Shown here: piece by piece, positions 4,901 through 57,062 of the stretch | Numbering within the stretch: the stretch's first letter is position 1 | Layout of the letters: each line of letters begins with the position of its first letter | Virus record (IMG/VR): IMGVR_UViG_3300025597_000012 | Direction: 5' to 3' (one strand) | From: a virus | DNA length: 64,000 nucleotides | Notes under the pieces: generated by a model | Told to the model about the DNA's origin: nothing | What the model saw: the letters and a program-made list of their open reading frames with translations, nothing else | Databases searched by the model: none | Translations under genes and position numbers: made by a program

Positions 4901-7900
4901 TTCTATAAGTTTCTGGTCGTCAGTCTTTTCTGTAGCATCTGCTTGGAAAGCTTTAACGGCAGTAATTAAGTCTTTTCTTTCAGTAAAGTCAAAAGGCATA
5001 CCATTACTTGAAGTAAGGTCGGCAAACTCGGCAAGATTCATAGCCGGAAGATATTTTATTTTAGCAACTCCTTGTTCACCTGCTTTTGCACCTTTTACAT
5101 TAGCTTTTAAAGCTCCATAAAAACCACTAAGTACACTTACAAACCAATCAAAGAATTTTCTAGCTAAACTAGCTCCAGATTTATGATATTTATCATAAAG
5201 GAATCTACCAGTTCTGTCAAAATTTCTAGCTCCAAGTTTACCTAAATAGTTAACTAAAGCTTCGTCTTGGATTTCTTCTTTATTTTTACCTTTATATAAA
5301 GGACTCTTTAAAGTTTCAGACATAGCTTCACCAGCTATATCATCGTTCTCAAGTACAAGAGCTTTATACTCCTCCATTAAGCTTGTATATAGAGCATGGT
5401 TATCTACTTTAAGTACAGCCATAAATGGGTGAAGATATTCGTGAAATGGTGTATCTCTTGATACTCTACTTAAGTTAATAACAGCTACACTATTTTCAAA
5501 TTTACCTTTCCAATCTTCATCAACATCTACTACTTGATAAGGTATATTATATTTTTGTTTAAGATGCTCAAGTATAACTTTAAGACCAACATAATCAACT
5601 GTTAAGTTATCTTCATCTTCTGTAGATACAGTAAAAGGTTCATTTTGTTTACCATATTCAGTTTTATGATTTTCTGAATAATCTGTATCATAAGATTTAG
5701 GTATAACTATTTCTTTAAGAACACCTTCATCAAAAGGTTCTTCTGTTTCTTCTTGAATTTCAGGAGCAACTTTAGTAAGTTTATCTGAAGCAACAATTTG
5801 TTCACCATACTTTGTACCATCAGTAATAGTAACAAAAGTAGTTCCTTTTACAGTTCCGAAAGGTGTTTCTTTATCAAGACCTTCATTAACTTCAGTAACG
5901 GTAAGTTCTTTACCATTATACATAACTTTAGAACCTACATCTTCCTTAGTGAATACTTCAGGAATACGTTCTTCCTCAGGTTGAGGTTGTTCTTCAGTCT
6001 GTTGTTCAACTGGTTCAGTTTGTTGAGTTTCAGTTTCTTGTGCAGGAGTTATTTCTTTTTCTTGTGTATTTCCTGCATTTAATTTATCAATGATTGACTG
6101 AATAGCCTCATCTTTATTTAAACCTATTGCATCACCAGCTTCATCATACCAAGCACCATCAAATTCATCAATAGTATTGATAAGAGTACCATTATGTTTT
6201 ATCTCTACAAGACCATCTCCTGTAGTACGAATACTTAATTCTTTACGAGTTATAGCTTTAGTAGGTACTGGAGCAGGTTCTTCGGCTTGTGCTTCTTCAA
6301 CCTTTTTCTCTTCTTCCTGTTCAGTTTTTACCTCTTCTTTAATAACAGTCTCATATTTTTCACCAAGCATAGCAGCATAAATCTTTTTCATGCTGTCATT
6401 AAGGGTTACGTCAATATCAGAACCTACGATACCTTTATAAATATCAGTTAACCATTTCTTAAAATTATCAAAGAGTTTTTGTAATGTAGAAGTAGGAGCT
6501 TCACCATCAGCAAGGTATTTCTCAAAACCTCTAGCAAATTTCTCAGATGTTTCTCTACTCCAATCTTCAGTTCCAGCCCATTCTAATACGTCAGCTCTCT
6601 CAGTATCAGTAAGTTGTCCTTCCCAATAGTGAGCAAGTTCATGTAAAGGAGTTGATACATCAGGATTAGTTAATGAATAAATAATAGCCTGACTATCACC
6701 TAAAAGTCTTATAGCACCTTTTGGGCCTTGATTAAACTGTACATTAGTCCAATTAGCAATTTTAGAAGTATCGTTTCTTTTTAAATCATTATCTGAAAAT
6801 TCAGGACGACCTGAATAAGTAGGTTTAAGTAGTCGTGTAAATCTGTGTTCTGAATTTTTTAATTTTTTAATTTGTTCTTTTATTTCACTTAATTTTGCCT
6901 CTATATTATTTTTAAATTCAAGATATTCAGTTATAGAATCAAAATCGTCTTCAGTTACACTATCTAAATTATTTTTAACTAGGTTATATAGTTGTATTGC
7001 CCCTTTATATTTATCTTCTCTAGTACGAGTATTTGTACCACCTTCTATATTTAAATGATTTTTAAGTTGATTATATATAGAATTAGATAATCTATCTTCT
7101 ATTACTTTTTGTTCATCTGATGTAATATTAGATATTAATTTAGAAATATCTTGAACTTTTCTAAAAGTTTCAGTCTGGTCTACTTTTAATAATTTTTTAT
7201 ATAAACTTGCTTCAGCTAAAATATAATGTACATTATCATCTCTTACAAAAGGAGAATTTATAATTTTATCTTCATAAGAATTATTTTCAATATCTTTATC
7301 TGTAACATTAAATTCACGAAGTATGCTTCTTAATCGAGTTACAAAAGAACCTATTTTTATATTTGTTAAAGTAGCTTCTTTATCTAACCCTCCATGACCG
7401 TTATTAAATCTATTCCAAAGTCCTGAAAGTCCTACTTTTATAGAATCATATTGTTGTGTTATTCCATTAAGTGCTTCAATCTCAGCGTCTGTTAAGTTAA
7501 AGATTTGTTTAAATTGAGATAAAGTTTCTTTATCAATATAGTCTACAATACGACCAAAATTTGATATAAGTTGATTTTTATATTCCTCTTCTGTAACAAA
7601 TTCTGTTCCATCACGAAAAACTTTAAGACCTTTGGAAATATCAGTAATAAAGTTTGTAGGATTTTTTATTTTAGAGATATTTTCTAAAATATTAGCTACA
7701 GGTATTCTTAATTTAGACTCAACTGATTGATTTTGAAATAAAAGATTACCTTCATTTATGAAAGGATTAACAGTTCCGTGAGTTGCCTCATATACGAATT
7801 TAAGGGTATTACCATATCCATTATCAGCAAGCCACTTGTTAATTTTCTTAGCAAGTTCGGGGGTAGCTTTACCATTCTTAGTTTGGAAGGCAAGGTTACC

Positions 7901-10900
7901 AAAGCTTTTAGCTTTTTGAAGCTCAAAGCCTTTTACCACGTTTGCTATCATAGCAGAATTAGAATACTGATAATAAATATCAGGATTCTCTGTAGAGAAT
8001 GTGGCATTTCTACCAGAGGCATCTTTAACTTGGTCTGCTTCGTAAACAGCTAAGTTCTTGATTCCCTGTTCTTTAACATAGTAACCATCATAACCATTAT
8101 CTTTGATAAGCTTTTGGAAAGCTTTATCTTCTAAGACTTGCCAGTTATGTTCTTCAGAAAGGTAGAAATTACCATTCTCATCTTCACCACCTGTTAGTCT
8201 GCTATATATAGTTTTATTGTGTTCTTTTAGGAAAGCAAGGTCTTGTTTATTCTCATAGTCAAAAGGTTTATTTGCTTTTACAAATAAAGATAAAACATTG
8301 TTACCTCTTGTCACCATAGCATAGTCTTCAGAAAAATCATACTCTGGTGATAAGAACAGACCCATTCCTCTACCTTGTGTTTTGTCAAAGATACTCCAAT
8401 TTTCAGGAGTACCATGAAACATAACCATAGGCTCACCATTAACATCAAGAACTTTAGAGTTACCAAACCAGTTCTTAAATGCTTTAGTCTTAGTTAAAAG
8501 CCATGTATCTTCATCAAGTAATGAAGGTCTTCCGTTTGGAGCTTTTCTGAAAGTACCATTCTTTTTAGCAGCTTCTTTGATTTGAGCTTTTTCCTGCTCA
8601 ATAGATGGATTCTGCCAAATAGTATCTTCTGAACCTTGAAGACTTTCAGGAGTTGTTTTTCTGAAAGTTATGGATTTATAGAAGTCTTCTTTGGTCTTAC
8701 CATTTCTTAAAGCCCAAGTAGTAGCTACTCTATCATAGATTTCAGATACAGCTTTAGCCTGAGTTGATTTAAGGCTGAATAATGTCTCCATTACTTTAGC
8801 CATACTTTTCTTATCGGCAGCCACTTGGACTGTTTCAAAAGCTCTTTTTTCAGCTTCAGCAGCTTCAGGAATAAGTCTTACCAGTGCATCAGAAACCTTT
8901 TTACCAAAGATATTCTTACCTGCTTCTGGATTATCTATGTATTGAGATACGACTGCATTAAATACATCCTCATCATTAGAGCCGGCAATACCACTCTTAT
9001 AAGGTTCTTTAATGTCAGTTAAGTTCTCTCTAACTATACTTATAAACTCTTCTTTAGGAGTTTGAATTTTCTTTTCTTCAATTCTAGCTTGCTTAACTGC
9101 TTTAGCTGCAGCGGGTTCTTGCTTAGGTTGAGGTTTTACCTCTTGTTTAGCTTCAGTAGGAGCTGAAGGTTTAACAGCAGCTTTCTGACCTTTTTGTAGA
9201 GGGAATACTCTTAAAGAAAACTGTTTGAATACATCAGGTTGAGCTGCTATTGAAAGAGAGTTATTAAGTTGGTCTTGAGTAACTTCTGCGTCATTCAAGA
9301 TACCTGATTTAAAGTCTTGTTTAGCAAGTGAAAGATTAAGTTTGTCTATACTCTTAGTTTCGTAAGATACTTTTCTAATCTTTTCATCAATAGCTCTAAC
9401 CATTCCGTCAAAGTCTTTGGCTTGCTTTATCTCATTAACTTTAACTCTTTTATGTATAGGATTCTCAGGGTCAACTGTTTTATTGAATACATTAAGATAG
9501 ATATTGCCTTGAGTATCAACAGTTAATTTAAGGTCAGTTCTTCTTTCATCTCTATTTCTAGAGTCTGCAATATAAAGTTTTTCTGTAAGTTCAGAATTAA
9601 TTTTATCTACCTGTGCTTTTGTTAAAGTATTAGGAAGATTTTTAAGTTCATTATATACTTCATTAAGAATCTTTTCATCAGCCGCAGAAGGTCTTGCTAC
9701 AAGATGTCTGAAAGTACTGTCAGGCATTTTCATAACATAAAGATAGCGTCTATCAAAAGATTGAATATTCTTCAGATTATTAGCAACATAAGTTACAATA
9801 TCTGTAATTTCATCTTGAGAAAGTTCTGCTTTATTAAGAATAGTAGGTTTAGTACTTCTTTCGTATTGTTTATTTTCTTTGTTATAAACAACTGGGAATG
9901 AAAGTATTGCACTACCTTTTTGACCTTTGTATGTAAGATTTTTAAGTAATGTAGAAGAAGATTCTGATTTTGAATAATTTATACCGCCATAAGAAGTTAC
10001 AATATCAAATAAAGCCTTAAGCTCCTGATTAGTAAATTCAGTTTTACCTGATTTAAATTGAGAATAGAAATGCTCACTAAGTGCTTTATAATCAGTCATT
10101 TGCTGAATAAAGTCAGAATAAGTTGAAGGTTCATTACCTGTAATTCTTTCATATTCTTCAGGAGCAATCTCAATTAACGGAGTATATTTTTCACCTCTTT
10201 TAAAATAAAGTCTATCAGCGTCACTAAGAAAACCAATAGTCTCACCTTCAAATTTTAATTCAATTTGAGTATGTGAACCTGTGTAGTAAACACCCGGAAT
10301 ATTTTTAAAACCTTGATATGCACCATGAGGAAGCCCTTTAGTGCTTTCTGCTACAGTAGCAGTAAGACCATCATAAATTTGTTGAGGTGTTTTACTGAAT
10401 AAAACTTTTCTAAGATTGTCATTATTTTTTTGACCATCTTGATAGTTTACAGAGTTAATCTTGTTAAATAAAACTGAAGGGTTAGCAACCATTTGGATGC
10501 TATTAGTCTTCACACCTTTTCTTTTCTTATCAGCTTCTTTTACACCTTCTTGAATTTCTGCAACATCCTCAGAATCAAATGTTTCGTGAGTAGGAGTATT
10601 GTCTATAAAAGTAACTGGGCCAGCAGAAGTTTGAACTTCTTTAGAAGTATTTTCTTCTAATGTAGCCAGTTCTGCATCATATTTAGCATTAATTTTTTTT
10701 GAATAAGCGTTTAAACTGGATTCCTCCCCTGTTCTTTCTCCTGTTTTAGAGTATTTACCAAAAGAAGTTTGAGAATACGCAACTTTTAAGTAATCTTCTG
10801 TTGTTTGTTCTTTACTGATTTCAAAAGGAGAGTTATCATTAACATTACCATATTTATTTTTTTCAATACCTTGGTAAGCCATTCTTTTTCCATCAGGATA

Positions 10901-13858: not shown

Positions 13859-16488
13859 TATTTATAATTTCTTAATTCTTCTATAAATTGTTCGTGTGTA
13901 AGTCCTTGTTGCGATGCAAGTTTAACTACTTGTTTTGCTTTATTATAAGCATCAGAAGGACTTAAACCATTGGTTGCTGGTATTGTAATTCTATCTACTC
14001 TATTTGTTTTATTACCATTTTCATCTAAATAATAAACTACAGCTTGTGCATAAGAGTTATTATCATTTAAATCTGATGAATTTCTATCTACTATATTTAC
14101 AAAGATAGACATATCTTTATTTCCATAAATAGGTAAATCAGAACTTCTACCGTTTATTTTTACACTATAGTTAAGTGAGTTTTCATAAGGGTCTCTTACA
14201 ATTCCCATTTTAGCAGCTTGACTATCACTAATAAAAGTTTTATATTTAGTTTTTACTGTTTTATCACCATTACCTACTTCAATATCAGATATAACAAAGT
14301 AACGTCCAGTACCATCAGATGCTTTTCCTATCATTGTAGGAGTAATCTTTTTTTCTACTGTTAAATCACTATTGCTAAGTTTAGGAGAATCTCTATAAGG
14401 TTCTGATTTTCCATTTATTAATTCTGTACTTATTAAATTAGATAATTGTCCATCACTAACAAAAGGGTCTTTATTTGAAATAGTTCTTAAACCATAAACA
14501 TCTCTTGTTTTTGTAGTTTTAAGACCTTCATTAATATTTTGTATGACTGTAGTTAAATAATCTCCAAATTCAGAATTTGCATAACCGGGAGTTACAAAAC
14601 CAAGAGCAGCAAGTCCATTTTGAATTATTGAAGCTGCTTCATTTGTGCTTTTTGAACTAAGTTCTGGATGTTTATTAATAAACTCAGTTATTTTTTCTCT
14701 AGCTGCTTCTGGAATGTTAAAATCATCATAAACTTTATTACGAACAGCTTCTACTTTTTTATTGTTAGCTTTGATAACTTCATTGTTCATTAATATCTTC
14801 TCAACATCAGCATCAAAACCATCTATTAAATCGGGAGTTACTGAACCTTTTCCTAAAGCTAAAGCTTCATAGTTCTTATATTGATTAGCAATAAATTGTA
14901 ATTGAGAACTATTTAAATTTGCTAAATGACCATATTGCTGAACTACAGCGTCATGTTTATAAACAGGTTTTCCATCAGGGCCTGTTGTCGTTTCAAACAT
15001 AGCTAAGTCATCTGCTTGTAATCCGGGTTGACCATTAAAATCTTCTATAAACTTCTGATTCTTAAGAAGTCTGGCTGTTCCTTTACCTATAGTTGTTACT
15101 TCTGTAACACCAACTTCAGGGTGTTCACCAACTAGCTTGTTTATAATAGATGCGGATATTTGGTCATTTTCTAGCTTTAATGCTGTATTTTCATCTGTAA
15201 TTTTAGCTAATGTTGGAATAGATGCTTCTTCTGTATTAGGGTCATCTGTTACTAAGTGGTTATCTCCTGTTGGTAAATCAAGTAATTCAATTTCTCCTGT
15301 TATAGGATTAACATGTCTATACTTACCTGCAGCAGCTAACTTAACTTGAAGCTCTCCCTCTTTAATATCAAGCTCTCTATTTTTTAATTCTACTGTTTTA
15401 GCAAAATGTCTATCAGCTTGTTCCATCTTATCAGTGAACATCTTAGCTTGGTCAAATTGTATAGTTCTGTCTGTTCTATTAACTGAGAATCTATTACCTA
15501 ATCCTCTAAAATAATCATCTGCATATAGATTGTAATAGACTTCATCAGGGTTAGATTGAAGTGCTTTACCAAAATTCTGTGAGAATTGTGACTTAGCCGA
15601 GGCAATAGAAGATACTACTTTAGCTTGTTCATCTGCTAATTTATTGTAATTTTTTCTAGCTTGGGGGTCATTAACTGCTTGAGCAGCAAGGTCTTCGTAT
15701 TCTCTTTGAAGTCTTACAGCATCATCAACTTTAGTTTGATATTGTGCTTCTCCTTTTTGCATAAGAGCCTTAGGGTCAGCTCCTCTGTATAAAAACCAAG
15801 CATCTCTTTTCATTTGTTCTCTTTCCTGAGGAAGCATATTATCAGCAGCAATAGCCATTATTCTGTCTGGACTAATTCTTTCACCTGTTTCCTTAGTTAT
15901 GTAATATCCATTTTGCATGATATTAGTAGTAAGGTCAGATTTAATTTTATCAAATAACTTATAGTGAGCATCACGATAAGCTACATAAGGAGTAGCCTCA
16001 GATGGGCCATTATAACTACTTCCAATAGTTTTATCATTCATGTAAGCATTAACACTTTGCATGTCATATGCTTCATTTACTTGGCTATAAAGTTTTGAAA
16101 GTTTAGGGTCTGTTTTAAATTTTTCATAAGAACTCATTAAATTTCTAACTTTCTTTGTTGAAGCAAGTGCAGAAAGAACTTTATTATCAGAATAAATATC
16201 AGAACCTAAACCTTCTACTTGTGCTGTTACACTTTGGTCAGATAAGTCAATTCCACCATATGTATTTAAAGAACTAACAAGATTATTAATCTTACCGTTA
16301 AGATAGTCTCTATCTTCTGTCTTTAATACATCTAAGCTACCAAGTTGGTCTATATCAGATTGTATCTTTTGGCCTGCCTTATCAAACTGTTCTTGCTTGA
16401 TACTCAACACTTTAGAGAAAAGGTTGAGGTCAAGTGGTAGCTCGTAAGGGCTAGACTTAAAAGGTGTACTTAAATAACTTATCGCCAT
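13858..16488 (-). CDS. Large structural (tail) protein, 876 aa
   Basis: Long ORF in the tail gene block; 1-nt start/stop coupling with the neighbouring gene. Confidence 0.7.
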   Translation of the reverse strand: MAISYLSTPFKSSPYELPLDLNLFSKVLSIKQEQFDKAGQKIQSDIDQLGSLDVLKTEDRDYLNGKINNLVSSLNTYGGIDLSDQSVTAQVEGLGSDIYSDNKVLSALASTKKVRNLMSSYEKFKTDPKLSKLYSQVNEAYDMQSVNAYMNDKTIGSSYNGPSEATPYVAYRDAHYKLFDKIKSDLTTNIMQNGYYITKETGERISPDRIMAIAADNMLPQEREQMKRDAWFLYRGADPKALMQKGEAQYQTKVDDAVRLQREYEDLAAQAVNDPQARKNYNKLADEQAKVVSSIASAKSQFSQNFGKALQSNPDEVYYNLYADDYFRGLGNRFSVNRTDRTIQFDQAKMFTDKMEQADRHFAKTVELKNRELDIKEGELQVKLAAAGKYRHVNPITGEIELLDLPTGDNHLVTDDPNTEEASIPTLAKITDENTALKLENDQISASIINKLVGEHPEVGVTEVTTIGKGTARLLKNQKFIEDFNGQPGLQADDLAMFETTTGPDGKPVYKHDAVVQQYGHLANLNSSQLQFIANQYKNYEALALGKGSVTPDLIDGFDADVEKILMNNEVIKANNKKVEAVRNKVYDDFNIPEAAREKITEFINKHPELSSKSTNEAASIIQNGLAALGFVTPGYANSEFGDYLTTVIQNINEGLKTTKTRDVYGLRTISNKDPFVSDGQLSNLISTELINGKSEPYRDSPKLSNSDLTVEKKITPTMIGKASDGTGRYFVISDIEVGNGDKTVKTKYKTFISDSQAAKMGIVRDPYENSLNYSVKINGRSSDLPIYGNKDMSIFVNIVDRNSSDLNDNNSYAQAVVYYLDENGNKTNRVDRITIPATNGLSPSDAYNKAKQVVKLASQQGLTHEQFIEELRNYK

Positions 16489-48234: not shown

Positions 48235-48407
48235 AACTAATTGGTTTTGAGGACAAAGATAAGTATTTTATTTGAAATAACAAAATTTTATATAAGACTT
48301 TAACATTTTGGTAACAAACAGGAAAGGCCGACTTACAACTAGTTGTAAATCAGCCTTTTAATTTAACCCTCCACCTTAGTCCTGTACCAGCGGGATTGGG
48401 GGAATAC

Positions 48408-48481
48408 GCACGGGCTGTGGGCATCGAACCCATCTCCATGCAAGGTTTTGGAGACCTGCTGCTTCCTAAAGCTAGCCCGGA
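48408..48481 (-). tRNA. tRNA-Trp (CCA), irregular T-arm/acceptor junction
   Basis: Anticodon loop CTCCAAA and T-loop TTCGATG found. Supported by the single TGG codon in the upstream leader peptide. Acceptor pairing imperfect. Confidence 0.45.
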
Positions 48482-48485
48482 TAAG

Positions 48486-48558
48486 TACACTCTAAAAGAT
48501 TCGAACTTTTATTTCTTGGTTCGTAGCCAAGTGTCCTCATCCATTGGACGAAGAGTGC
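48486..48558 (-). tRNA. tRNA-Arg (ACG)
   Basis: Manual cloverleaf: GCACTCT / GTCC..GGAC / CTTGG-CTACGAA-CCAAG / AAAAG-TTCGAAT-CTTTT. Confidence 0.8.
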
Positions 48559-48563
48559 AAAAG

Positions 48564-48635
48564 TGTGAATGACCAGACTCGAACTGGTACTTAGTAGCTC
48601 CACAAACTACCGCTCTACCATTAAGCTACATCCAC
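48564..48635 (-). tRNA. tRNA-His (GTG)
   Basis: Anticodon loop TTGTGGA; extra 5' G; T-arm ACCAG-TTCGAGT-CTGGT. Confidence 0.8.
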
Positions 48636-48643
48636 CATATGAG

Positions 48644-48714
48644 ATGCCTCTAAAGGACTCGAACCTGTAACTCTTGACCCAAAATCAAGCGTGTTGCCAT
48701 TACACTAAGAGGCA
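48644..48714 (-). tRNA. tRNA-Gln (TTG)
   Basis: Anticodon arm CTTGA-TTTTGGG-TCAAG; acceptor TGCCTCT/AGAGGCA. Confidence 0.8.
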
Positions 48715-48719
48715 AAAAG

Positions 48720-48791
48720 CGTGGAAGGTGGATTCCGAGACCACAACACCTTGCTCTTCAGGCAAGTGCTCTACCTTTGAGCTACATCCAC
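48720..48791 (-). tRNA. tRNA-Phe (GAA)
   Basis: Anticodon loop CTGAAGA; D-arm GCTC-AAAGGTA-GAGC. Confidence 0.75.
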
Positions 48792-48798
48792 ATAATTG

Positions 48799-48872
48799 AG
48801 CCTGAGAAGGGAATCGAACCCTCAACCGCTAGTTTACAAAACTAGTGCTCTACCGATTGAGCCACTGCAGGC
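48799..48872 (-). tRNA. tRNA-Thr (TGT)
   Basis: Anticodon arm CTAGT-TTTGTAA-ACTAG; acceptor stem has a bulge or mismatch. Confidence 0.65.
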
Positions 48873-48876
48873 ATAG

Positions 48877-48948
48877 TCTAGTTGACAGGGTTCGAACCTG
48901 CCTAGTCTTGCTCCCAAAGCAAGTGCCTAACCAATCGGCCACAACTAG
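48877..48948 (-). tRNA. tRNA-Pro (TGG)
   Basis: Anticodon arm CTTGC-TTTGGGA-GCAAG; acceptor CTAGTTG/CAACTAG. Confidence 0.8.
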
Positions 48949-48949
48949 A

Positions 48950-48978
48950 AATAAAAAACCCCGCTTTATAGGCGGGGC
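48950..48978 (-). terminator. Intrinsic terminator (CCCCGCC-UAUAAA-GCGGGG then U6AUUU) abutting the 5' end of tRNA-Pro; acts as the attenuator terminator of tRNA array A
   Basis: GC hairpin followed by a T-run on the minus strand. Confidence 0.7.
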
Positions 48979-49003
48979 TTTAAGTATAATAATTGAGTTT
49001 CAA

Positions 49004-49078
49004 TTAGTTACACGTAGTGCATCCGCCACCAGATATTGTGGGCGTAAACCAAAAGCGTGTATGTTGAAACTGTTTCAT
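49004..49078 (-). CDS. Leader peptide MKQFQHTRFWFTPTISGGGCTTCN (24 aa) of tRNA array A
   Basis: ATG about 57 nt downstream of the predicted TSS; stop 27 nt upstream of the terminator hairpin. Codons CAG TTT CAA CAT ACA CGC TTT TGG TTT ACG CCC ACA are read by exactly the seven downstream tRNAs (Gln, Phe, His, Thr, Arg, Trp, Pro). Confidence 0.6.
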   Translation of the reverse strand: MKQFQHTRFWFTPTISGGGCTTCN

Positions 49079-49141
49079 ATTTAAAAAAGACCAATTCTAA
49101 GCGCGCTGTTCTATAGGAAGCGGAACTGGTATATTGATGCA

Positions 49142-49172
49142 AACTTACGAAGAATTTTTCAATCCTCCAAAT
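49142..49172 (-). promoter_or_regulatory. Bacteroidota-type promoter (TTTG-N20-TAAGTTTG) for the array A leader
   Basis: Member of an extended consensus repeated six times in 48-58 kb (…AAATTTGG…AAATATTTTTCGTA(T/A)ATTTG). Confidence 0.55.
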
Positions 49173-49785: not shown

Positions 49786-49790
49786 ATTTG

Positions 49791-49875
49791 TGAGAGTGGC
49801 TGGAGTCGAACCAGCACCCTTGCGGGACTACAGTTTTACAGACTGCTCCACCTAACCGATAGGTAGCTCACTCTC
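49791..49875 (-). tRNA. tRNA-Tyr (GTA), type II
   Basis: Anticodon arm GCAGT-CTGTAAA-ACTGT; variable arm TCCC-GCAA-GGGT. Confidence 0.8.
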
Positions 49876-49881
49876 AAATAG

Positions 49882-49967
49882 CGGAAACGAAAGGACTCGA
49901 ACCTTCAACCCAAATTAACGAGTAACGGTTTAGCAAACCGCTGCAGTACCATTATGCTTACGCTTCC
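49882..49967 (-). tRNA. tRNA-Ser (GCT), type II
   Basis: Anticodon loop TTGCTAA; long variable arm; acceptor GGAAGCG/CGTTTCC. Confidence 0.7.
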
Positions 49968-49972
49968 AATAG

Positions 49973-50056
49973 CGGTAGAGACAGGAATCGAACCTGTACG
50001 GCTATTACACCTTCATGGTTTTCAAGACCAATAAGCCCTCTCATTTGCGCTCTACC
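49973..50056 (-). tRNA. tRNA-Ser (TGA), type II
   Basis: Anticodon loop CTTGAAA; 84 nt; acceptor GGTAGAG/CTCTACC. Confidence 0.7.
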
Positions 50057-50062
50057 AATATG

Positions 50063-50148
50063 TACTCCTGACTGGACTCGAACCAGCACGTCCATTTCTG
50101 GACAAGGGATTTTAAGTCCCTCGTGTCTACCAATTCCACCACAGGAGC
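50063..50148 (-). tRNA. tRNA-Leu (TAA), type II
   Basis: D-arm GTG-GAATTGGTAGA-CAC; anticodon arm AGGGA-CTTAAAA-TCCCT. Confidence 0.8.
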
Positions 50149-50153
50149 ATATG

Positions 50154-50237
50154 TAGCCTCGGAGAGACTCGAACTCTCACGTCCTTACGGACACTAGCTC
50201 CTAAGGCTAGCGCGTCTACCAATTCCGCCACAAGGCC
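50154..50237 (-). tRNA. tRNA-Leu (TAG), type II
   Basis: D-arm GCG-GAATTGGTAGA-CGC; anticodon arm CTAGC-CTTAGGA-GCTAG. Confidence 0.8.
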
Positions 50238-50238
50238 A

Positions 50239-50269
50239 ATAAAAAACCCCGACTATTGCTCGCCGGGGT
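50239..50269 (-). terminator. Intrinsic terminator (7-bp GC stem then U6AUU) 2 nt upstream of tRNA-Leu(TAG); attenuator terminator of array B
   Basis: Hairpin plus T-run on the minus strand. Confidence 0.7.
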
Positions 50270-50300
50270 TTGAGGTTAAAGACCGTAGTCTAAAACAAGT

Positions 50301-50369
50301 TTACATAGTATTCCCAGCTCGATTTTTACTCGATAAACTGAGGGAATAATATGTGTTGTTTGTCTTCAT
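50301..50369 (-). CDS. Leader peptide MKTNNTYYSLSLSSKNRAGNTM (22 aa) of tRNA array B
   Basis: ATG 11 nt from the predicted TSS. Eight consecutive codons TAT TAT TCC CTC AGT TTA TCG AGT cover all five downstream tRNAs: Tyr-GTA, Ser-TGA, Leu-TAG, Ser-GCT, Leu-TAA. Confidence 0.6.
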   Translation of the reverse strand: MKTNNTYYSLSLSSKNRAGNTM

Positions 50370-50386: not shown

Positions 50387-50418
50387 CAAATATACGAAAA
50401 ATATTTGAAACTACCAAA
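50387..50418 (-). promoter_or_regulatory. Promoter TTTG-N20-TATATTTG for the array B leader
   Basis: Extended consensus copy. Confidence 0.55.
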
Positions 50419-53243: not shown

Positions 53244-53255
53244 TGGTTTTATTTG

Positions 53256-53331
53256 TGGAATCTATGGGCATCGAACCCATCTGGTATTCTGCTTGCAAGG
53301 CAGACGACCACTCCAAGCAGTCCCAGACCCC
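53256..53331 (-). tRNA. tRNA-Ala (TGC)
   Basis: Anticodon arm TCTGC-CTTGCAA-GCAGA; acceptor GGGGTCT/AGATTCC with G3:U70; unusual G8. Confidence 0.65.
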
Positions 53332-53335
53332 AAAT

Positions 53336-53456
53336 GCGGGGGACTACGGCCCCCTAAAGATGTCTTATTAGGTTTCATCTCTGTCCCGGATTACGCTAGC
53401 GAGCTACCGGGGAAACCACGCTACATACTTTCGTAGAGGTTATGCGGGTTACACTG
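53336..53456 (-). ncRNA. Unresolved ~120-nt structured spacer between tRNA-Ala and tRNA-Ile; hairpin-rich but no canonical cloverleaf found
   Basis: GGGGG-CCGTAGT-CCCCC and TAGCG…CGCTA stems. Confidence 0.2.
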
Positions 53457-53529
53457 TGCTCACGCTAAGACTCGAACTTAGACTCTCTCGCGTATCAGGC
53501 GAGAGCTTTAACCATTAAGCTACATGAGC
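53457..53529 (-). tRNA. tRNA-Ile (GAT)
   Basis: Anticodon arm CTCGC-CTGATAC-GCGAG; T-arm CTAAG-TTCGAGT-CTTAG. Confidence 0.8.
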
Positions 53530-53581
53530 TGGAGAGGGACAGGTTATTTATACCTTCAAAGGACTCCCTCAGACCTCTTCG

Positions 53582-53654
53582 TACTCTCAAAGGGATTCGA
53601 ACCCTAAATTGCCTGTGTATAAGACAGGAGTTTTCACCGTTAAACTATGAGAGC
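53582..53654 (-). tRNA. tRNA-Ile (TAT) (AUA-decoding, or a modified-Met type)
   Basis: Anticodon arm CCTGT-CTTATAC-ACAGG; acceptor GCTCTCA/TGAGAGT. Confidence 0.55.
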
Positions 53655-53659
53655 AAGTA

Positions 53660-53740
53660 AAGAGAGTGGGATTAGATTTCCGGGGATTGACCCAACCTGT
53701 GTCCTAATCTTATTTATCCTTGTACGGAGGCACACTCTCT
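53660..53740 (-). ncRNA. tRNA-like element (~80 nt) with 7-bp terminal pairing AGAGAGT/ACTCTCT but no canonical T-loop
   Basis: Pairing of the two ends is seen; no cloverleaf could be built. Confidence 0.25.
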
Positions 53741-53801
53741 TTGAATGGTCGGGCGGATTGCTTCTTTCAGCCTCAGACATTAATTACAATGTTGCCCGAT
53801 G

Positions 53802-53874
53802 CGGTCTATCACGGATTCGAACCGAGACTACCGCATAGACAGTGCGGCGTGTTCAACCATTACACTAATAGACC
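53802..53874 (-). tRNA. tRNA-Asp (GTC)
   Basis: Anticodon arm CCGCA-CTGTCTA-TGCGG; acceptor GGTCTAT/ATAGACC; overlaps the 3' end of the upstream ORF by ~15 nt. Confidence 0.8.
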
Positions 53875-54504
53875 ATAAACTTTATCCATGTTTGTTTTTC
53901 CGTTGCCATGAATAATCAACGGCTGAGTACCAGTTTTTTTATTAATCAGGATTCCATGTCTGTACTCAAAGTCATCTTCTGATTCAAAAGCTACAGATTG
54001 AAATAAATCACAGTTGGTATCCAACTTCATGTTATATTTATCTCTGTGCTTCAGATAAATTTCTGCTAAGTTAACTTGGTCATTATCACTATGTTTTATT
54101 GGATAATCCTCAAACATCTTGATAAATAAATCTACATTAACAAAGCATGCACCACCATTCAGATATTTCCAATCACTTTTTACTTTAGGATATTTTTCTG
54201 CCCAATCTGAATAAGGCCAGCATCCTTTTTCTGCGTTAAATATAATAGAATCAATATCATCTATTCTATCTATTGCTTGTTGCATTGTACCCAAAACTAT
54301 GATGTCATAAGTGTCTAGGATAAACAAGTGAGTACAATCTGTTTGCTTTGCATAGTTATAAGCGTTAACCATTTTACTACCATAAGCTTTATAGGTATCA
54401 GTCAGAATATCATAATTCCAATCAAACCTATCAAGTGAATCTTTAAACTGTTTAAACCCTTCGTGGTTTAAGTTGGTTGCTGTTCCTATTACGTTTACTT
54501 TCAT
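53860..54504 (-). CDS. Hypothetical protein, possible glycosyltransferase-like
   Basis: ORF; weak resemblance only. Confidence 0.35.
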   Translation of the reverse strand: MKVNVIGTATNLNHEGFKQFKDSLDRFDWNYDILTDTYKAYGSKMVNAYNYAKQTDCTHLFILDTYDIIVLGTMQQAIDRIDDIDSIIFNAEKGCWPYSDWAEKYPKVKSDWKYLNGGACFVNVDLFIKMFEDYPIKHSDNDQVNLAEIYLKHRDKYNMKLDTNCDLFQSVAFESEDDFEYRHGILINKKTGTQPLIIHGNGKTNMDKVYGLLV

Positions 54505-55289
54505 TTGAATGGATTATAATAAATAGATATTGTATTATTCTTATAACCCTGAACGGTTTCGTGATAGGTTTTCCATTGTTCAGAAGCATGGTTTTCTTTC
54601 CATTTCTGGTATGGTGTTCCTCCTGTATCTATGTGTTCTATCTCTATATGAGGTAAGAATACACTTTTAAACCCTGATAGTCTTGCTCTTATAGACATAA
54701 GGACATCATCAAATCCGTATAAACTAGGTTGGTATAAATAACCTATTTTATCAAGTAAAGCTGCTGAGTGCATAACACAAGTACCCATCACATGATTTAC
54801 TTGTTCTACTACTACCCATTTTTCACCGGGCTGGTGTTGAAGCATTAGTAATTCTGACTTATAAAAATCAGTTCTATTTGGTGATTCCCAACAATCTTTT
54901 CTTTTCAAGCCCACCTGTCCAATAGTATTGTCACGGCGAAAAACTTCTTCCATCTGTTCTATCCAACCTGATTGATGTATTACTACATCATCATCAATTT
55001 TAACACAATTCTCTCCGGGTTTTCTTTCTTTCCATGCTAAATTAATAGCTTCAGCAGTTCCTAGATTTTTATCATTCCAGATAACTTTATCAATTACAGA
55101 AAAAATTCCATTTGATTCAGAAAAATCTTCTATTATTTCTTTTGTTCTAGTAGTATAGGAATTTACAGAAAGTATTAATCTGTGTGAATCCCAGTCAACT
55201 GTTTTTTCTAAAGAATCTAATGTTTTATAAAGATATGTATCTTTATCATTATCTTCAGTACAATAAACAGCCATTGCTATTAAAGCCAT
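54501..55289 (-). CDS. Glycosyltransferase family 2-like; start moved to the internal Met at 55289 because the track start (55331) lies inside tRNA-Glu
   Basis: …NDKNLGTAEAINLAWKE…CVKIDDDVVI… (DxD) and YGFDDVLMSIRARLSGFK. Confidence 0.55.
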   Translation of the reverse strand: MALIAMAVYCTEDNDKDTYLYKTLDSLEKTVDWDSHRLILSVNSYTTRTKEIIEDFSESNGIFSVIDKVIWNDKNLGTAEAINLAWKERKPGENCVKIDDDVVIHQSGWIEQMEEVFRRDNTIGQVGLKRKDCWESPNRTDFYKSELLMLQHQPGEKWVVVEQVNHVMGTCVMHSAALLDKIGYLYQPSLYGFDDVLMSIRARLSGFKSVFLPHIEIEHIDTGGTPYQKWKENHASEQWKTYHETVQGYKNNTISIYYNPFK

Positions 55290-55304
55290 TGGTTTTATTT
55301 TTAG

Positions 55305-55379
55305 TATTCTGGAAGGGACTCGAACCCTCACTGACCACAGTGAAAGTGTGGTGACTTATTCCAATTTGTCAACCAGAAC
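55305..55379 (-). tRNA. tRNA-Glu (TTC)
   Basis: Anticodon arm CCACA-CTTTCAC-TGTGG; acceptor GTTCTGG/CCAGAAT. Confidence 0.75.
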
Positions 55380-55459
55380 ATTTGCAGTTTAGTCGGCCTC
55401 TACTATACCTAGGCCGCAGAGAGTATAGACTCGTATTCCATCTACTGCAAAAAGGAATT

Positions 55460-55530
55460 GAGCGAGTAGTGGGAGTCAAACCCACGCCTTAACCTTGGAA
55501 GGGTCATATGCTATCGTAACACTTCACTCG
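55460..55530 (-). tRNA. tRNA-Gly (TCC)
   Basis: Anticodon arm TGACC-CTTCCAA-GGTTA; T-arm GTGGG-TTTGACT-CCCAC; the 5' end overlaps the HNH stop. Confidence 0.6.
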
Positions 55531-55942
55531 CTAATGCTTCTTTATAATGTAAATCTCTATGACAATTAGCACATAAAACTTTACATTTATTTATTTCTTC
55601 TTGTAATAGTTTTTTAGAACATTTTGTTACAAGTTGTGATACTTCTGAATCTTTTTCATTTGGATTTTTATGATGAAAATCTAAAACCCAATATCTACTA
55701 TCTCCACATGATTCACAAGATAAAGTACTTTTGTATTCAGAAAACCATTTTCTAAAGTCTTGTTTATACTTTACTGCTTTTTGAATATACTTTTCTTTAT
55801 TTTTTTCGTAATGCTTTTTTCTATATTCTTTTTGACAAGCTTTACAATTACTTTGATAAAGTAAATTTTTTCTATCTTTTCTTGTAGCAAACTCCGTTAA
55901 AGGAAGTTCTTTTTTACAAATTGTACATTTTTTAATTTTCAT
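55511..55942 (-). CDS. HNH homing endonuclease (leaderless; start at MKIKKCTICKK)
   Basis: CESCGDS…DFHHKNP…LCANCHRDLH; the predicted promoter places the TSS on the ATG, so the N-terminal extension in the ORF track is rejected. Confidence 0.7.
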   Translation of the reverse strand: MKIKKCTICKKELPLTEFATRKDRKNLLYQSNCKACQKEYRKKHYEKNKEKYIQKAVKYKQDFRKWFSEYKSTLSCESCGDSRYWVLDFHHKNPNEKDSEVSQLVTKCSKKLLQEEINKCKVLCANCHRDLHYKEALASEVLR

Positions 55943-55947
55943 ATATG

Positions 55948-55979
55948 TAAATATACGAAAAATAATTGATACTTCCAAA
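55948..55979 (-). promoter_or_regulatory. Promoter TTTG-N20-TATATTTA for the HNH endonuclease
   Basis: Extended consensus copy. Confidence 0.5.
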
Positions 55980-56001
55980 TTTTATTTTATTTGGAAGGAT
56001 G

Positions 56002-56073
56002 TTGCGTAGGCTGGATTCGAACCAGCGACCTAATGGTTATGAGCCATCCGAGCTACCTCTGCTCTACCACGCA
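56002..56073 (-). tRNA. tRNA-Met (CAT), elongator-like
   Basis: Anticodon arm GATGG-CTCATAA-CCATT; T-arm GCTGG-TTCGAAT-CCAGC. Confidence 0.8.
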
Positions 56074-56183
56074 ATTTATCCCCGGACTAGTGCGCCTTCC
56101 TCCGGGGGTGTTATTGCTTATCTTCTTCGTCAATAACTAAACCCTTTTGGGTCGGCCAACGGATACTATCCGCAGGGGGGGGG

Positions 56184-56396
56184 CTATCTTAATATCTTTA
56201 AACCGCTGGTAGCAGTCCAAAGAACATAATTGTTTTTCTTTACTTCACCCATTACTATTTTCTTTTCATAATTAGTAACTCGTGAAGTAGGAAGGGTAAC
56301 CAACCAGTGAATGAATTTTTCTCGTTCACCTTTGTATTTTTTAATACTGGCTATCCTACGGTATTCCTTACCGTCTTTTATGACTGTATCATTCAT
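56184..56396 (-). CDS. Small basic hypothetical protein
   Basis: ORF; its TAG stop directly abuts a G9 homopolymer. Confidence 0.35.
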   Translation of the reverse strand: MNDTVIKDGKEYRRIASIKKYKGEREKFIHWLVTLPTSRVTNYEKKIVMGEVKKNNYVLWTATSGLKILR

Positions 56397-56397
56397 G

Positions 56398-56472
56398 CGG
56401 GACAGGATGGACTCGAACCAACGACCTTAGAGTTAACAGCTCTCTGCTCTCGACCAACTGAGCTACAGTCCC
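56398..56472 (-). tRNA. tRNA-Asn (GTT)
   Basis: Anticodon loop CTGTTAA; D-arm GCTC..GAGC. Confidence 0.7.
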
Positions 56473-56513
56473 CTTTTGTATTTTTAACTCCACGCAGAAT
56501 ACTAACTGACCTG

Positions 56514-56587
56514 AAGCCCTGAAAGGAGTCGAACCTTCATCTAATAGTTTAGAAAACTATGACATTCATCCATTATGCTACAGGGCC
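56514..56587 (-). tRNA. tRNA-Arg (TCT)
   Basis: Anticodon arm ATAGT-TTTCTAA-ACTAT; acceptor GGCCCTG/CAGGGCT. Confidence 0.8.
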
Positions 56588-56590
56588 ATG

Positions 56591-56665
56591 TACATCTGGA
56601 ATGAGTCGAACATTCGGTCTCCGTCTTGTAAGGGCGGTGCTTTCAACCAACTAAGCTACAGATGC
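56591..56665 (-). tRNA. tRNA-Val (TAC)
   Basis: Anticodon loop CTTACAA; acceptor GCATCTG/CAGATGT. Confidence 0.75.
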
Positions 56666-56720
56666 AAATATAATACTTTATTTAAAGCTTACCAAATAAA
56701 GTATGTTAAAGTTTTGTTAG

Positions 56721-56791
56721 AGGACAAGATAGGAATCGAACCTACGCTGGAGGTGTTGCAGACCTCTGCCTTACCGCTTGGCTACTTGTCC
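56721..56791 (-). tRNA. tRNA-Cys (GCA)
   Basis: Anticodon arm GAGGT-CTGCAAC-ACCTC; acceptor GGACAAG/CTTGTCC. Confidence 0.8.
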
Positions 56792-56794
56792 ATG

Positions 56795-56868
56795 TGCTAC
56801 CGAAGGGACTCGAACCCATAACCTCCTGATTAAAAGTCAGAAGCTCTACACTATTGAGCTACGATAGC
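56795..56868 (-). tRNA. tRNA-Lys (TTT)
   Basis: Anticodon loop CTTTTAA; acceptor GCTATCG/CGGTAGC. Confidence 0.75.
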
Positions 56869-56871
56869 AAA

Positions 56872-56898
56872 TAAAAAACCCTCCTTTAAGGGGAGGGC
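56872..56898 (-). terminator. Intrinsic terminator (CCCUCC…GGAGGG then U6AUUU) 4 nt upstream of tRNA-Lys; attenuator terminator of array D
   Basis: Hairpin plus T-run. Confidence 0.7.
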
Positions 56899-56920
56899 TT
56901 CAGTAATATTCGTGGTTAAA

Positions 56921-57013
56921 TTAAACCAGTTCTATATCAGACATAGCTCTCCTGATGATGGTATCTCTACCCACCTCTTTACAAATCATATTTATGGCTA
57001 TGTTCTTTCTCAT
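56921..57013 (-). CDS. Leader peptide MRKNIAINMICKEVGRDTIIRRAMSDIELV (30 aa) of tRNA array D
   Basis: ATG 11 nt from the predicted TSS. Codons AGA AAG AAC…AAT…TGT AAA…GTG…AGA…AGG AGA…GTT are read by the downstream Arg-TCT, Lys-TTT, Asn-GTT, Cys-GCA and Val-TAC tRNAs (13 of 29 codons). Three ATA codons also match tRNA-Ile(TAT). Confidence 0.55.
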   Translation of the reverse strand: MRKNIAINMICKEVGRDTIIRRAMSDIELV

Positions 57014-57030: not shown

Positions 57031-57062
57031 CAAACTTACGACAAATATTTGGATTTTCCAAA
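57031..57062 (-). promoter_or_regulatory. Promoter TTTG-N20-TAAGTTTG for the array D leader
   Basis: Extended consensus copy. Confidence 0.55.

Follow-up and report, generated by a model that had tools for sequence, protein, structure and literature searches.

How might a phage control the transcription of its own transfer RNA (tRNA) genes? The question is raised by a 64,000-nucleotide (nt) stretch of viral DNA, referred to here as the window (IMG/VR virus record IMGVR_UViG_3300025597_000012), in which three units of tRNA genes (A, B, and D) are each preceded by a promoter, a short open reading frame (ORF), and a terminator hairpin. An initial annotation of the region had proposed that the ORF ahead of array A is the leader peptide of an attenuator, spelling out the amino acids of its own array, and that arrays B and D are preceded by leaders of the same design. 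Here, we report an in silico analysis (sequence and computation throughout) of these leaders and of their counterparts in related phages, in which the codons of each leader correspond to the tRNAs that follow it and trp/his-type ribosome-mediated attenuation is the likely mode of control.

Leaders of the window

The leaders, terminators, and tRNA units of the window are all on the minus strand (coordinates in Table 1). Upstream of array A, the promoter of the initial annotation was confirmed, with TTTG at 49171-49168, a 20-nt spacer, and TAAGTTTG at 49147-49140; its -33 TTTG/-7 TAnnTTTG form is what we take to be the Bacteroidota sigma-A consensus. An extended version of this motif (AAATTTGG-N15-21-TANNTTTG) has six occurrences in the window, each of them on the minus strand (0.04 expected), and stands ahead of 20 of the 28 leaders surveyed in relatives (see below). 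The 24-codon leader ORF is present as claimed (MKQFQHTRFWFTPTISGGGCTTCN plus stop, 49078-49004), and its codons 3 to 14 use exactly the seven amino acids ascribed to array A, every codon being cognate and all seven amino acids represented (7/7). A 24-nt spacer separates the ORF from the terminator hairpin (AAAGCCCCGC-CTATAAA-GCGGGGTTTT), which runs into tRNA-Pro much as had been described, its T tract stopping 1 base before the gene at 48948.

The count of seven tRNAs in array A is firm for six, which were called by both ARAGORN and Rfam. The seventh, Trp-CCA (48408-48480), was found at a relaxed ARAGORN threshold only and is without an Rfam call; it can be aligned with Trp tRNAs at the equivalent array position in relatives, with which its anticodon loop (CTCCAAAA) is identical.

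Leader A is preceded by a 5′ untranslated region (UTR) of 61 nt and leaders B and D by one of 17 nt each. The longer UTR includes an extra predicted hairpin followed by U6, which could be a second terminator or a pause site. In the closest relative (L008), leader A likewise stands behind a long UTR (70 nt).

Arrays B and D have the same parts (promoter, short ORF, terminator, and tRNAs), in agreement with the initial annotation. Taken together, the three runs of cognate codons cover all 20 amino acids, and the division among them is exactly that of the tRNA units. Arg appears in two leaders, as CGC in leader A, ahead of tRNA-Arg(ACG), and as AGA in leader D, ahead of tRNA-Arg(TCT), and the ATA and ATT codons of leader D correspond to Ile-TAT and Ile-GAT.

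Correspondence between leader codons and tRNAs

Cognate runs were evaluated against random peptides of the same length drawn from the amino-acid composition of each genome. In leader A, the probability of the longest run observed (at least 12 in 23 codons) was 5.6e-7, and leaders B (2.2e-5) and D (run of 16; 1.4e-3) were also enriched, which bears out the enrichment anticipated by the initial annotation. Leaders of related phages were detected by rules blind to amino-acid content (an ATG ORF of 15 to 45 codons, ending 50 to 75 nt before the first tRNA of the array and followed by a hairpin and T tract), and the survey set comprised 28 non-redundant leaders from 13 genomes. Their cognate runs were mostly 8 to 23 codons long, with two weaker leaders at 4 to 5 codons and two exceptions (L007 and leader B of Lbo-JY46) that are discussed below. 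Probabilities per leader mostly fell between 1e-3 and 1e-8, with a summed -log10 P of 122.

The mean longest cognate run was 11.1 codons in the ORF frame and 2.1 and 2.8 codons in the other two frames. Amino acids of a unit were present in its own leader in 184 of 189 cases (126 expected), and in all nine genomes with two or more leaders (9/9), the true assignment of leaders to units lay far above every permutation. The correspondence between leaders and arrays cannot be chance.

Under strict wobble rules, 257 of the 312 run codons can be read by the anticodons of the unit, and a further 46 of the 312 only if U34 decodes all four codons of its box. Where a unit has a single Arg isoacceptor, 16 of 17 Arg codons come from the matching box (CGN with tRNA-Arg(ACG), AGR with tRNA-Arg(UCU)), although CGN accounts for only 25% of Arg codons genome-wide; this match points to the sensing of tRNA species, not amino acids. 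Among four-fold boxes in the runs, codons ending in A or G were observed 63 times (44 expected; p = 3e-4), and C-ending codons were frequent too. In those four-fold boxes for which the only tRNA has U34, the runs show an excess of C-ending and a deficit of T-ending codons.

Leaders follow tRNA relocations in related phages

No match to the region was found by megablast among 50,697 phage records. Relatives were collected via the large terminase protein (TerL; 71 loci from IMG/VR and 80 from metagenomes, plus GenBank records), and the design was found to recur in 16 related phage genomes, TerL identities across the compared relatives being 31 to 63%. Leader ORFs of the relatives are 21 to 42 codons long (at least 28 homologous cases) and nearly always start with ATG, usually followed by AAA or AAT, the sole GTG start being that of unit 2 in Cellulophaga phage phi4:1. 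In about nine relatives, the -7 box is followed by the ATG at a distance of 4 to 7 nt, which makes it probable that these leaders are translated from leaderless mRNAs. Lys or Asn occupies codon 2 in 17 of the 28 leaders.

Leader content tracks the movement of tRNAs between arrays in at least eight cases. Where tRNA-Cys is in array A (L062, L063, and L067), leader A includes Cys (FRHTWFTCQPTQP) and leader D is without it. One genome (L012) groups Asp and Asn with Pro, Thr, Phe, Gln, His, and Trp behind a leader without Arg (NNWHNTFNNFTPDQQD); its tRNA-Arg(ACG) has been relocated to unit 1, the leader of which is VIIAGRGAERIVK. Another (L044) has the leader NNQPSWNHQNTDD ahead of Trp, Pro, Asp, Asn, Gln, and His. 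In three genomes (L002, L031, and L155), the tRNAs for Leu, Ser, and Tyr share one fused unit with those for Pro, Gln, His, and Arg (e.g., leader LSLHSSRPYQQLSLL), and Thr, Phe, and Trp are transferred to the other unit (e.g., leader MMNNWFNIIDTAFATRNCGKVGI). The array of L079, with Pro, Gln, and His only, stands behind HPQPQH.

Cultured phages carrying the design are the Cellulophaga phages phi4:1 (L074, NC_021788.1) and phi17:2 and the Leptolyngbya phage Lbo-JY46 (L072, PP438436.1). The deposited genomes of phi4:1 and Lbo-JY46 are reported as isolates, and their leaders are unannotated or mis-annotated; each genome has three leaders. The units of phi4:1 are of yet another composition, with QRLHLQELEQP ahead of Pro, Glu, Gln, His, Leu, Leu, and Arg; TKTGITVIDKTKGARAY ahead of Ala, Lys, Ile, Gly, Met, Asp, Thr, Val, and Arg; and YNNSNWSFSY ahead of Tyr, Ser, Ser, Asn, Trp, and Phe. 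A search of the related phages for homologous arrays that lack a leader, or have one uncorrelated with the array, did not return that pattern in this clade (30+ leaders, 16 genomes). Most terminase relatives of about 40% identity in metagenomes had no tRNA array near the terminase gene.

Some features of the two deposited genomes deserve correction or comment. In phi4:1 (15352-15471 and 13242-13343, minus strand), annotated gp075 begins at a TTG inside the promoter, whereas the true gene here is the unit 2 leader, with GTG as its probable start codon (QLTKTGITVIDKTKGARAYLGDTVIG); annotated gp076 overlaps an apparent tRNA-Ser(TGA), and the two annotated tRNA-Pseudo features are Asn and Ser by ARAGORN. 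Lbo-JY46 has TTTGG-N-TAnnTTTG promoters (1780-1830, 5340-5390, and 6075-6120), presumably of Bacteroidota type, despite its recorded cyanobacterial host, and the nearest of its characterised relatives are phages of Cellulophaga. The host entry may be questionable, the true host being, e.g., a Bacteroidota member of a non-axenic culture.

The relocations and the Arg codons bear on what an attenuator of this kind would sense. The attenuators may be real and their signal amino-acid starvation, i.e., uncharged tRNA in general, which would make them a global translation-stress switch and not sensors of isoacceptor supply. Leader-peptide attenuators such as the trp, his, and leu leaders respond to charged tRNA and hence to amino-acid supply, and the three leaders jointly cover all 20 amino acids. 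A starvation switch, however, would have no reason to partition amino acids by array content or to follow tRNAs as they relocate, nor would it account for Arg codons that match the isoacceptor of the unit in 16 of 17 cases, and additional tRNA would not cure a shortage of amino acids. We regard starvation as an unlikely signal.

Predicted RNA switch

All 28 leaders are followed by a GC-rich hairpin of -10 to -22 kcal/mol, the 5′ arm of which is rich in C; the hairpin and its T tract end 4 to 13 nt before the first tRNA, and the distance from leader stop codon to terminator is 14 to 33 nt. The same terminator sites were recovered in an independent terminator scan. The best partner of the terminator 5′ arm is, in 25/28 leaders, the segment right after the run and still within the ORF (about codons 15 to 21), with antiterminator duplexes of 6 to 13 bp and -10 to -27 kcal/mol (mean z = -3.1 versus shuffles). 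Leaders pair with their own terminator arm at a mean of -15.6 kcal/mol, a value attained in 0 of 100,000 permutations, versus -10.3 kcal/mol with the arms of others. This comparison of matched and mismatched duplexes is free of alignment and was adopted because a MAFFT alignment of the seven A-type leaders was out of structural register; formal base-pair covariation counts were dropped on the same ground. Leader tails are G-rich (31% G) and Gly-rich (17%, versus 6% genome-wide) because the antiterminator segments are located there.

For leader A, the initial annotation had pointed to complementarity between GGUGGCGG and CCGCC of the terminator 5′ arm, which is present but modest (-12.1 kcal/mol; z = -2.0 versus shuffles). 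In the predicted fold without a ribosome, the antiterminator strand GGUGGCGGAUGC pairs with the end of the run (ACGCCCAC), and the CCC codon contributes to this pairing between run end and G-rich segment. A protector (1:2) pairing of this kind is present in the folds of leaders A and B of the window.

The ribosome was modelled as a 28-nt unpaired mask around its aminoacyl (A) site. At equilibrium, about 10 leaders exchange the terminator for the antiterminator for precisely as long as the A site is within the run, and in the same leaders the terminator is back when the ribosome is in the tail or absent; terminator probability without a ribosome is at least 0.5 in 27/28 leaders, which would imply a protector pairing in them. 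In nascent transcripts, folded before emergence of the terminator 3′ arm, mean sequestration of the 5′ arm was 0.73 with the ribosome in the run, 0.37 with it in the tail, and 0.57 without one (run versus tail, Wilcoxon p = 1.4e-7). The nascent minimum-energy model gave, for leader A, a pairing of 49026-49019 with 48978-48972 that is present with the A site at codons 6 to 12 and lost from codon 15 (run, codons 3 to 14); for leader B, 50318-50313 with 50268-50263, present at codons 6 to 12 and lost from 15 (run, 7 to 14); and for leader D, 56952-56944 with 56899-56892, present at codons 6 to 15 and lost from 18 (run, 2 to 17). The run thus ends where a translating ribosome starts to cover the antiterminator strand, which explains both its length and its position.

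The direction of regulation is drawn solely from folding models, and at equilibrium the leaders of the window are without any switch, which would suit a reversed logic in which efficient translation of the leader gives read-through and stalling gives termination, the array being expressed when decoding already works (feed-forward or quality control). Against this, the strand complementary to the terminator 5′ arm is downstream of the run in 25/28 leaders, and it is predicted to be free with a ribosome in the run and masked afterwards, so that stalling would lead to read-through. A reversed switch therefore appears very unlikely.

A control independent of ribosomes was also considered, in which tRNA anticodons pair directly with the codon string of the leader RNA and stabilise one structure. 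The string is indeed cognate to the tRNAs, and T-box elements sense tRNA through codon-anticodon pairing. Such a scheme is hard to reconcile with runs that are always in frame between start and stop, with a stop 14 to 33 nt before the terminator, and with two other frames that are without signal; a string of 8 to 23 contiguous specifier codons is without known precedent, and no T-box or other riboswitch family was detected. We hold direct pairing to be highly improbable.

Proposed mechanism

Ribosome-mediated attenuation of the trp/his type, giving demand-driven and feedback-controlled transcription of tRNAs, is in our judgment the probable explanation of these leaders. The sequence-level predictions of this proposal, which was that of the initial annotation, all hold in the window and its relatives (ORF, in-frame cognate run, adjoining terminator, and covarying antiterminator). 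Directly observed are the component parts and their arrangement, the match of codons to tRNAs and the covariation of that match, and a leader tail complementary to the terminator; from them we infer translation of the leader, its coupling to transcription, the direction of regulation, and the physiological trigger.

In the proposed mechanism, host RNA polymerase would initiate at the Bacteroidota-type promoter and a ribosome would translate the 21- to 42-codon leader, which would act as a test string of the codons read by the unit's own tRNAs. If any needed aminoacyl-tRNA were scarce, the ribosome would stall within the run and leave the G-rich segment 1 to 4 codons downstream free to capture the emerging C-rich 5′ arm of the terminator; with that arm captured, no terminator would form, and the polymerase would enter the tRNA genes. 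Fast decoding would instead bring the ribosome over the G-rich segment, and the terminator would form and stop transcription a few bases before the first tRNA. With no ribosome on the leader, the run or nearby sequence would sequester the G-rich segment and termination would prevail. The logic would be that of an OR gate, a shortage of any isoacceptor of the unit being sufficient. Because its products are the very tRNAs that are tested, the circuit would be a negative-feedback homeostat, in which demand would induce synthesis of the phage tRNAs and their accumulation would end it.

Several points weigh against attenuation as set out above. The mutually exclusive antiterminator and terminator expected by the initial annotation were seen for the window's three leaders in the nascent-transcript model only; the equilibrium model never displaces the terminator in A, B, or D. 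The own-leader duplexes of the window rank 14 (A), 3 (B), and 18 (D) of 28, those of A and D being weak relative to their counterparts in relatives, and leader D is without a clear protector (1:2) hairpin in the nascent model. Of the run codons, 15% are NNY codons whose box has a U34 tRNA and no other. Several tRNAs, the Trp and Ser-TGA tRNAs of the window among them, are known from relaxed thresholds. Unit D is 3.6 kb long with at least one internal promoter (at about 55990, ahead of an HNH endonuclease gene), and control by the leader over the distal tRNAs of unit D is uncertain given that length and promoter. In the relatives, the Tyr codons in leader B of Lbo-JY46 had no counterpart among the tRNAs found; the 4-tRNA array of csAssE-Sib, which comes from the human gut and is related by its terminase, has a hairpin and no leader ORF, so the design is not universal; and the leader of L007 (TFLRPSLSLYSQHLY) is kept ahead of an array that now has only Pro, Val, Gly, and Cys. 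Kinship among the genomes makes the per-leader P values phylogenetically non-independent, and the independent evidence therefore lies in the relocation events, of which there are at least eight, and not in the raw P values.

The L007 leader (6230-8060; MNTFLRPSLSLYSQHLYAGQGNSV) predicts tRNAs for Thr, Phe, Leu, Arg, Pro, Ser, Tyr, Gln, and His, and the mismatch looks like a recent internal deletion of the array to which the sensor has not adjusted.

Taking the hairpins as constitutive terminators, insulators, or processing signals, with untranslated ORFs and a correspondence of no regulatory role, is likewise scarcely credible, since, although a hairpin and U tract beside a tRNA 5′ end could serve processing, the correspondence is beyond chance and is kept, as is the tail-terminator complementarity, through at least eight rearrangements at TerL identities of 31 to 63%, and a strong constitutive terminator between promoter and tRNAs would silence the arrays.

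As to what such attenuators would be for, we offer a tentative suggestion: the leaders may be isoacceptor-resolved sensors of the host decoding pool, which would detect the loss of specific host tRNAs, whether through anticodon nucleases and other tRNA-targeting defences or through host shut-off by the phage, and would induce the matching replacement unit. They would then amount to an inducible counter-defence circuit and a closed-loop homeostat of the genetic code, distributed over three sensors. Among the neighbouring proteins, Pfam and PHROG scans gave no hit to tRNA repair or modification functions, which might have hinted at a specific trigger.

Genomic setting

The sequence of the window resembles, by its appearance, that of a large relative of crAss-type phages; it includes a 3959-amino-acid (aa) ORF (1979-13858, minus strand), and its large terminase matches phrog_6681. 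ARAGORN called 21 tRNA genes between 48485 and 56868, most of them supported by Rfam, which added 1 more; a relaxed ARAGORN threshold gave 3 further tRNAs (Trp-CCA, Gly-TCC, and Ser-TGA). Of these, Gly-TCC (55460-55531) was also found by Rfam, and Ser-TGA (about 49978-50061) scored 35.6 bits with the tRNA-Sec model at 49974-50061.

Table 1. Features of the three tRNA units and their leaders in the window.
Feature	Position	Strand	Basis or remark
Promoter of unit A: -33 TTTG(G), -7 TAAGTTTG; also written TTTGG-N19-CGTAAGTTTG	49140..49171	-	sequence
Extra hairpin (ACCAGUUC...GAAUUGGU) then U6, in 5′ UTR of leader A	49085..49128	-	fold
Leader ORF A: MKQFQHTRFWFTPTISGGGCTTCN*	49004..49078	-	ORF translation
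Regulatory run A, codons 3-14: CAG TTT CAA CAT ACA CGC TTT TGG TTT ACG CCC ACA	49037..49072	-	peptide QFQHTRFWFTPT
Region 2 of leader A, antiterminator strand GGUGGCGGAUGC	49019..49030	-	fold; pairs with terminator 5′ arm 48978-48972
Intrinsic terminator A: stem AAAGCCCCGC/GCGGGGTTTT, loop CTATAAA, T tract	48949..48981	-	-13.6 kcal/mol; among best minus-strand terminator scan hits
tRNA array A: Pro-TGG, Thr-TGT, Phe-GAA, Gln-TTG, His-GTG, Arg-ACG, divergent Trp-CCA	48408..48948	-	first six by ARAGORN and Rfam
Terminator-like hairpin closing unit A	48323..48358	-	terminator scan
Promoter of unit B	50387..50418	-	motif
Leader ORF B: MKTNNTYYSLSLSSKNRAGNTM	50301..50369	-	ORF translation
Run B, codons 7-14: YYSLSLSS	50351-50328	-	cognate to Leu, Leu, Ser, Ser, Tyr array
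Antiterminator strand B: GCUGGG	50318-50313	-	fold, duplex energies
Intrinsic terminator B: AAACCCCGGC-GAGCAATA-GTCGGGGTTT and T tract	50238..50271	-	-17.4 kcal/mol; terminator scan
tRNA array B: Leu-TAG, Leu-TAA, Ser-TGA (weak call), Ser-GCT, Tyr-GTA	49790..50237	-	ARAGORN, relaxed ARAGORN, Rfam
Promoter of unit D	57031..57062	-	motif
Leader ORF D: MRKNIAINMICKEVGRDTIIRRAMSDIELV	56921..57013	-	ORF translation
Run D, codons 2-17: RKNIAINMICKEVGRD (16 codons)	57010-56963	-	11/11 unit amino acids covered
Predicted antiterminator strand D	56952-56944	-	fold
Intrinsic terminator D: GAAGCCCTCC-CCTTAAA-GGAGGGTTTT and T tract	56869..56901	-	-12.3 kcal/mol; terminator scan
Unit D tRNAs: Lys, Cys, Val, Arg-TCT, Asn, Met, Gly-TCC, Glu, Asp, Ile-TAT, Ile-GAT, Ala	53255..56868	-	ARAGORN, Rfam, relaxed ARAGORN

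Among the tRNAs of unit D lie a 70-aa ORF, a gene for an HNH endonuclease that has a promoter of its own, and genes for two glycosyltransferase-like proteins. The terminator scan found no strong minus-strand terminator from 56875 to 53255, and unit D therefore plausibly spans 3.6 kb, through the inserted ORFs, to the Asp/Ile/Ile/Ala group. The HNH endonuclease gene (155 aa, phrog_2255; 55511-55990, minus strand) and its promoter copy are inserted between tRNA-Met and tRNA-Gly; L011 and similar relatives have a compact unit D without this gene, and L002 and Lbo-JY46 have homing-endonuclease-like genes elsewhere within their arrays. Spacers of 50 to 145 nt between unit D tRNAs (53332-53455, 53655-53800, 55380-55460, and 56074-56183, minus strand) have a GC content above that of their surroundings and a structured look (e.g., GCCCCCCCCCUGCGGAUAGUAUCCG at about 56183), and no Rfam family matched them at E-values up to 0.1.

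A ferritin-like protein (PF00210; 49205-49741, minus strand) is encoded between arrays A and B, and its own promoter begins 1 base after tRNA-Tyr. PKD-domain proteins and two glycosyltransferase-like proteins are located among the tRNA units.

Relation to known systems and significance

The phage leaders are built like enterobacterial trpL, hisL, leuL, pheL, thrL, and ilvL: a short ORF has a run of regulatory codons, the terminator 5′ arm has an alternative upstream partner (2:3 versus 3:4 pairing), and the position of the ribosome decides, or in the phages would decide, between the two. Multivalent leaders that sense more than one amino acid exist already (thrL and ilvL) and are closest in logic to those of the phages, together with that of pheST (pheM). 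Unlike these biosynthetic leaders, the phage leaders would regulate tRNAs and not enzymes, and their run is a near-complete list of 3 to 13 amino acids, each usually present one to three times, rather than a repeat of one. They are also phage-encoded and isoacceptor-specific (Arg CGN versus AGR), and many copies are on apparently leaderless mRNAs. In the pheST attenuator of Escherichia coli, the pheM leader peptide controls phenylalanyl-tRNA synthetase in response to charged tRNA-Phe. It shares with the mechanism proposed for the phages the control of a component of the translation apparatus by a leader peptide, and it differs in being cellular, in sensing one amino acid, and in governing a protein-coding operon.

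T-box elements resemble the proposed switch in coupling tRNA status to a choice between terminator and antiterminator upstream of genes of the translation apparatus, with specificity at the level of the codon. Their direct binding of uncharged tRNA without a ribosome, conserved stem I and T-box motifs, and single specifier codon are not features of the phage leaders, and the window gave no Rfam T-box match at the gathering threshold or at E-values up to 1. In mycobacteria, leaderless poly-cysteine short ORFs act as Cys-responsive attenuators (10.1101/834739). They resemble the phage leaders, as interpreted here, in having a regulatory short ORF at or near the transcript 5′ end, the codon content of which sets the sensitivity of what lies downstream, and differ in sensing one amino acid, in preceding protein-coding operons, in belonging to another phylum, and in not necessarily switching an intrinsic terminator.

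Membership in the Rfam Trp_leader family (RF00513) was rejected, the match at 48951-49037 (minus strand) scoring 33.9 bits versus a gathering threshold of 41. That sub-threshold match is driven by a fortuitous UGGUGGCG string and the GCCCCGC...GCGGGG terminator; the UGGUGG of leader A does not encode Trp, the frame being UCU GGU GGC GGA. The Thr, His, and Phe leader families scored 23 to 25 bits versus thresholds of 49 to 55 (on Lbo-JY46), which is resemblance and not membership. The phage leaders belong to no curated RNA family. A Phe-rich, attenuator-like leader of the E. coli tRNA-Phe genes (pheV and pheU) was considered and dropped as a precedent, the sequence upstream of pheV in MG1655 being without such an ORF.

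Full-text literature searching, which missed most subscription journals, found no report of leader peptides ahead of, or controlling, tRNA genes, the closest finds being the mycobacterial poly-cysteine ORFs (10.1101/834739) and studies of phage tRNAs in counter-defence (PMC10264068, PMC11555353, PMC11464382). We know of no other attenuator of tRNA genes. The mechanism of attenuation is itself known; what would be new is leader-peptide attenuation applied to tRNA genes.

The reason for which phages carry tRNA genes has been debated for 50 years, the proposals being that these genes provide codon compensation, replace a host pool that has been degraded, or allow escape from defences that cleave tRNA (PMC10264068). 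Large tRNA arrays are thought to replace scarce or cleaved host tRNAs, in codon compensation or in counter-defence (PMC10264068, PMC11555353, PMC11464382). Those studies concern the same cargo and address the function of the tRNAs; none of them describes a cis-acting transcription sensor.

If the proposed mechanism is true, the trp-type switch would be generalisable to an OR gate with multiple inputs, up to 13 amino acids in number, the leaders would offer a means to delimit phage tRNA transcription units from sequence, and they could supply small, modular components for engineered sensors that report tRNA availability in Bacteroidota. The idea is directly testable because the design is present in cultured phages (phi4:1, phi17:2, and Lbo-JY46). 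For the phages themselves, tRNA expression would be demand-driven and feedback-limited, and the leaders would state the decoding deficits that the phage expects.

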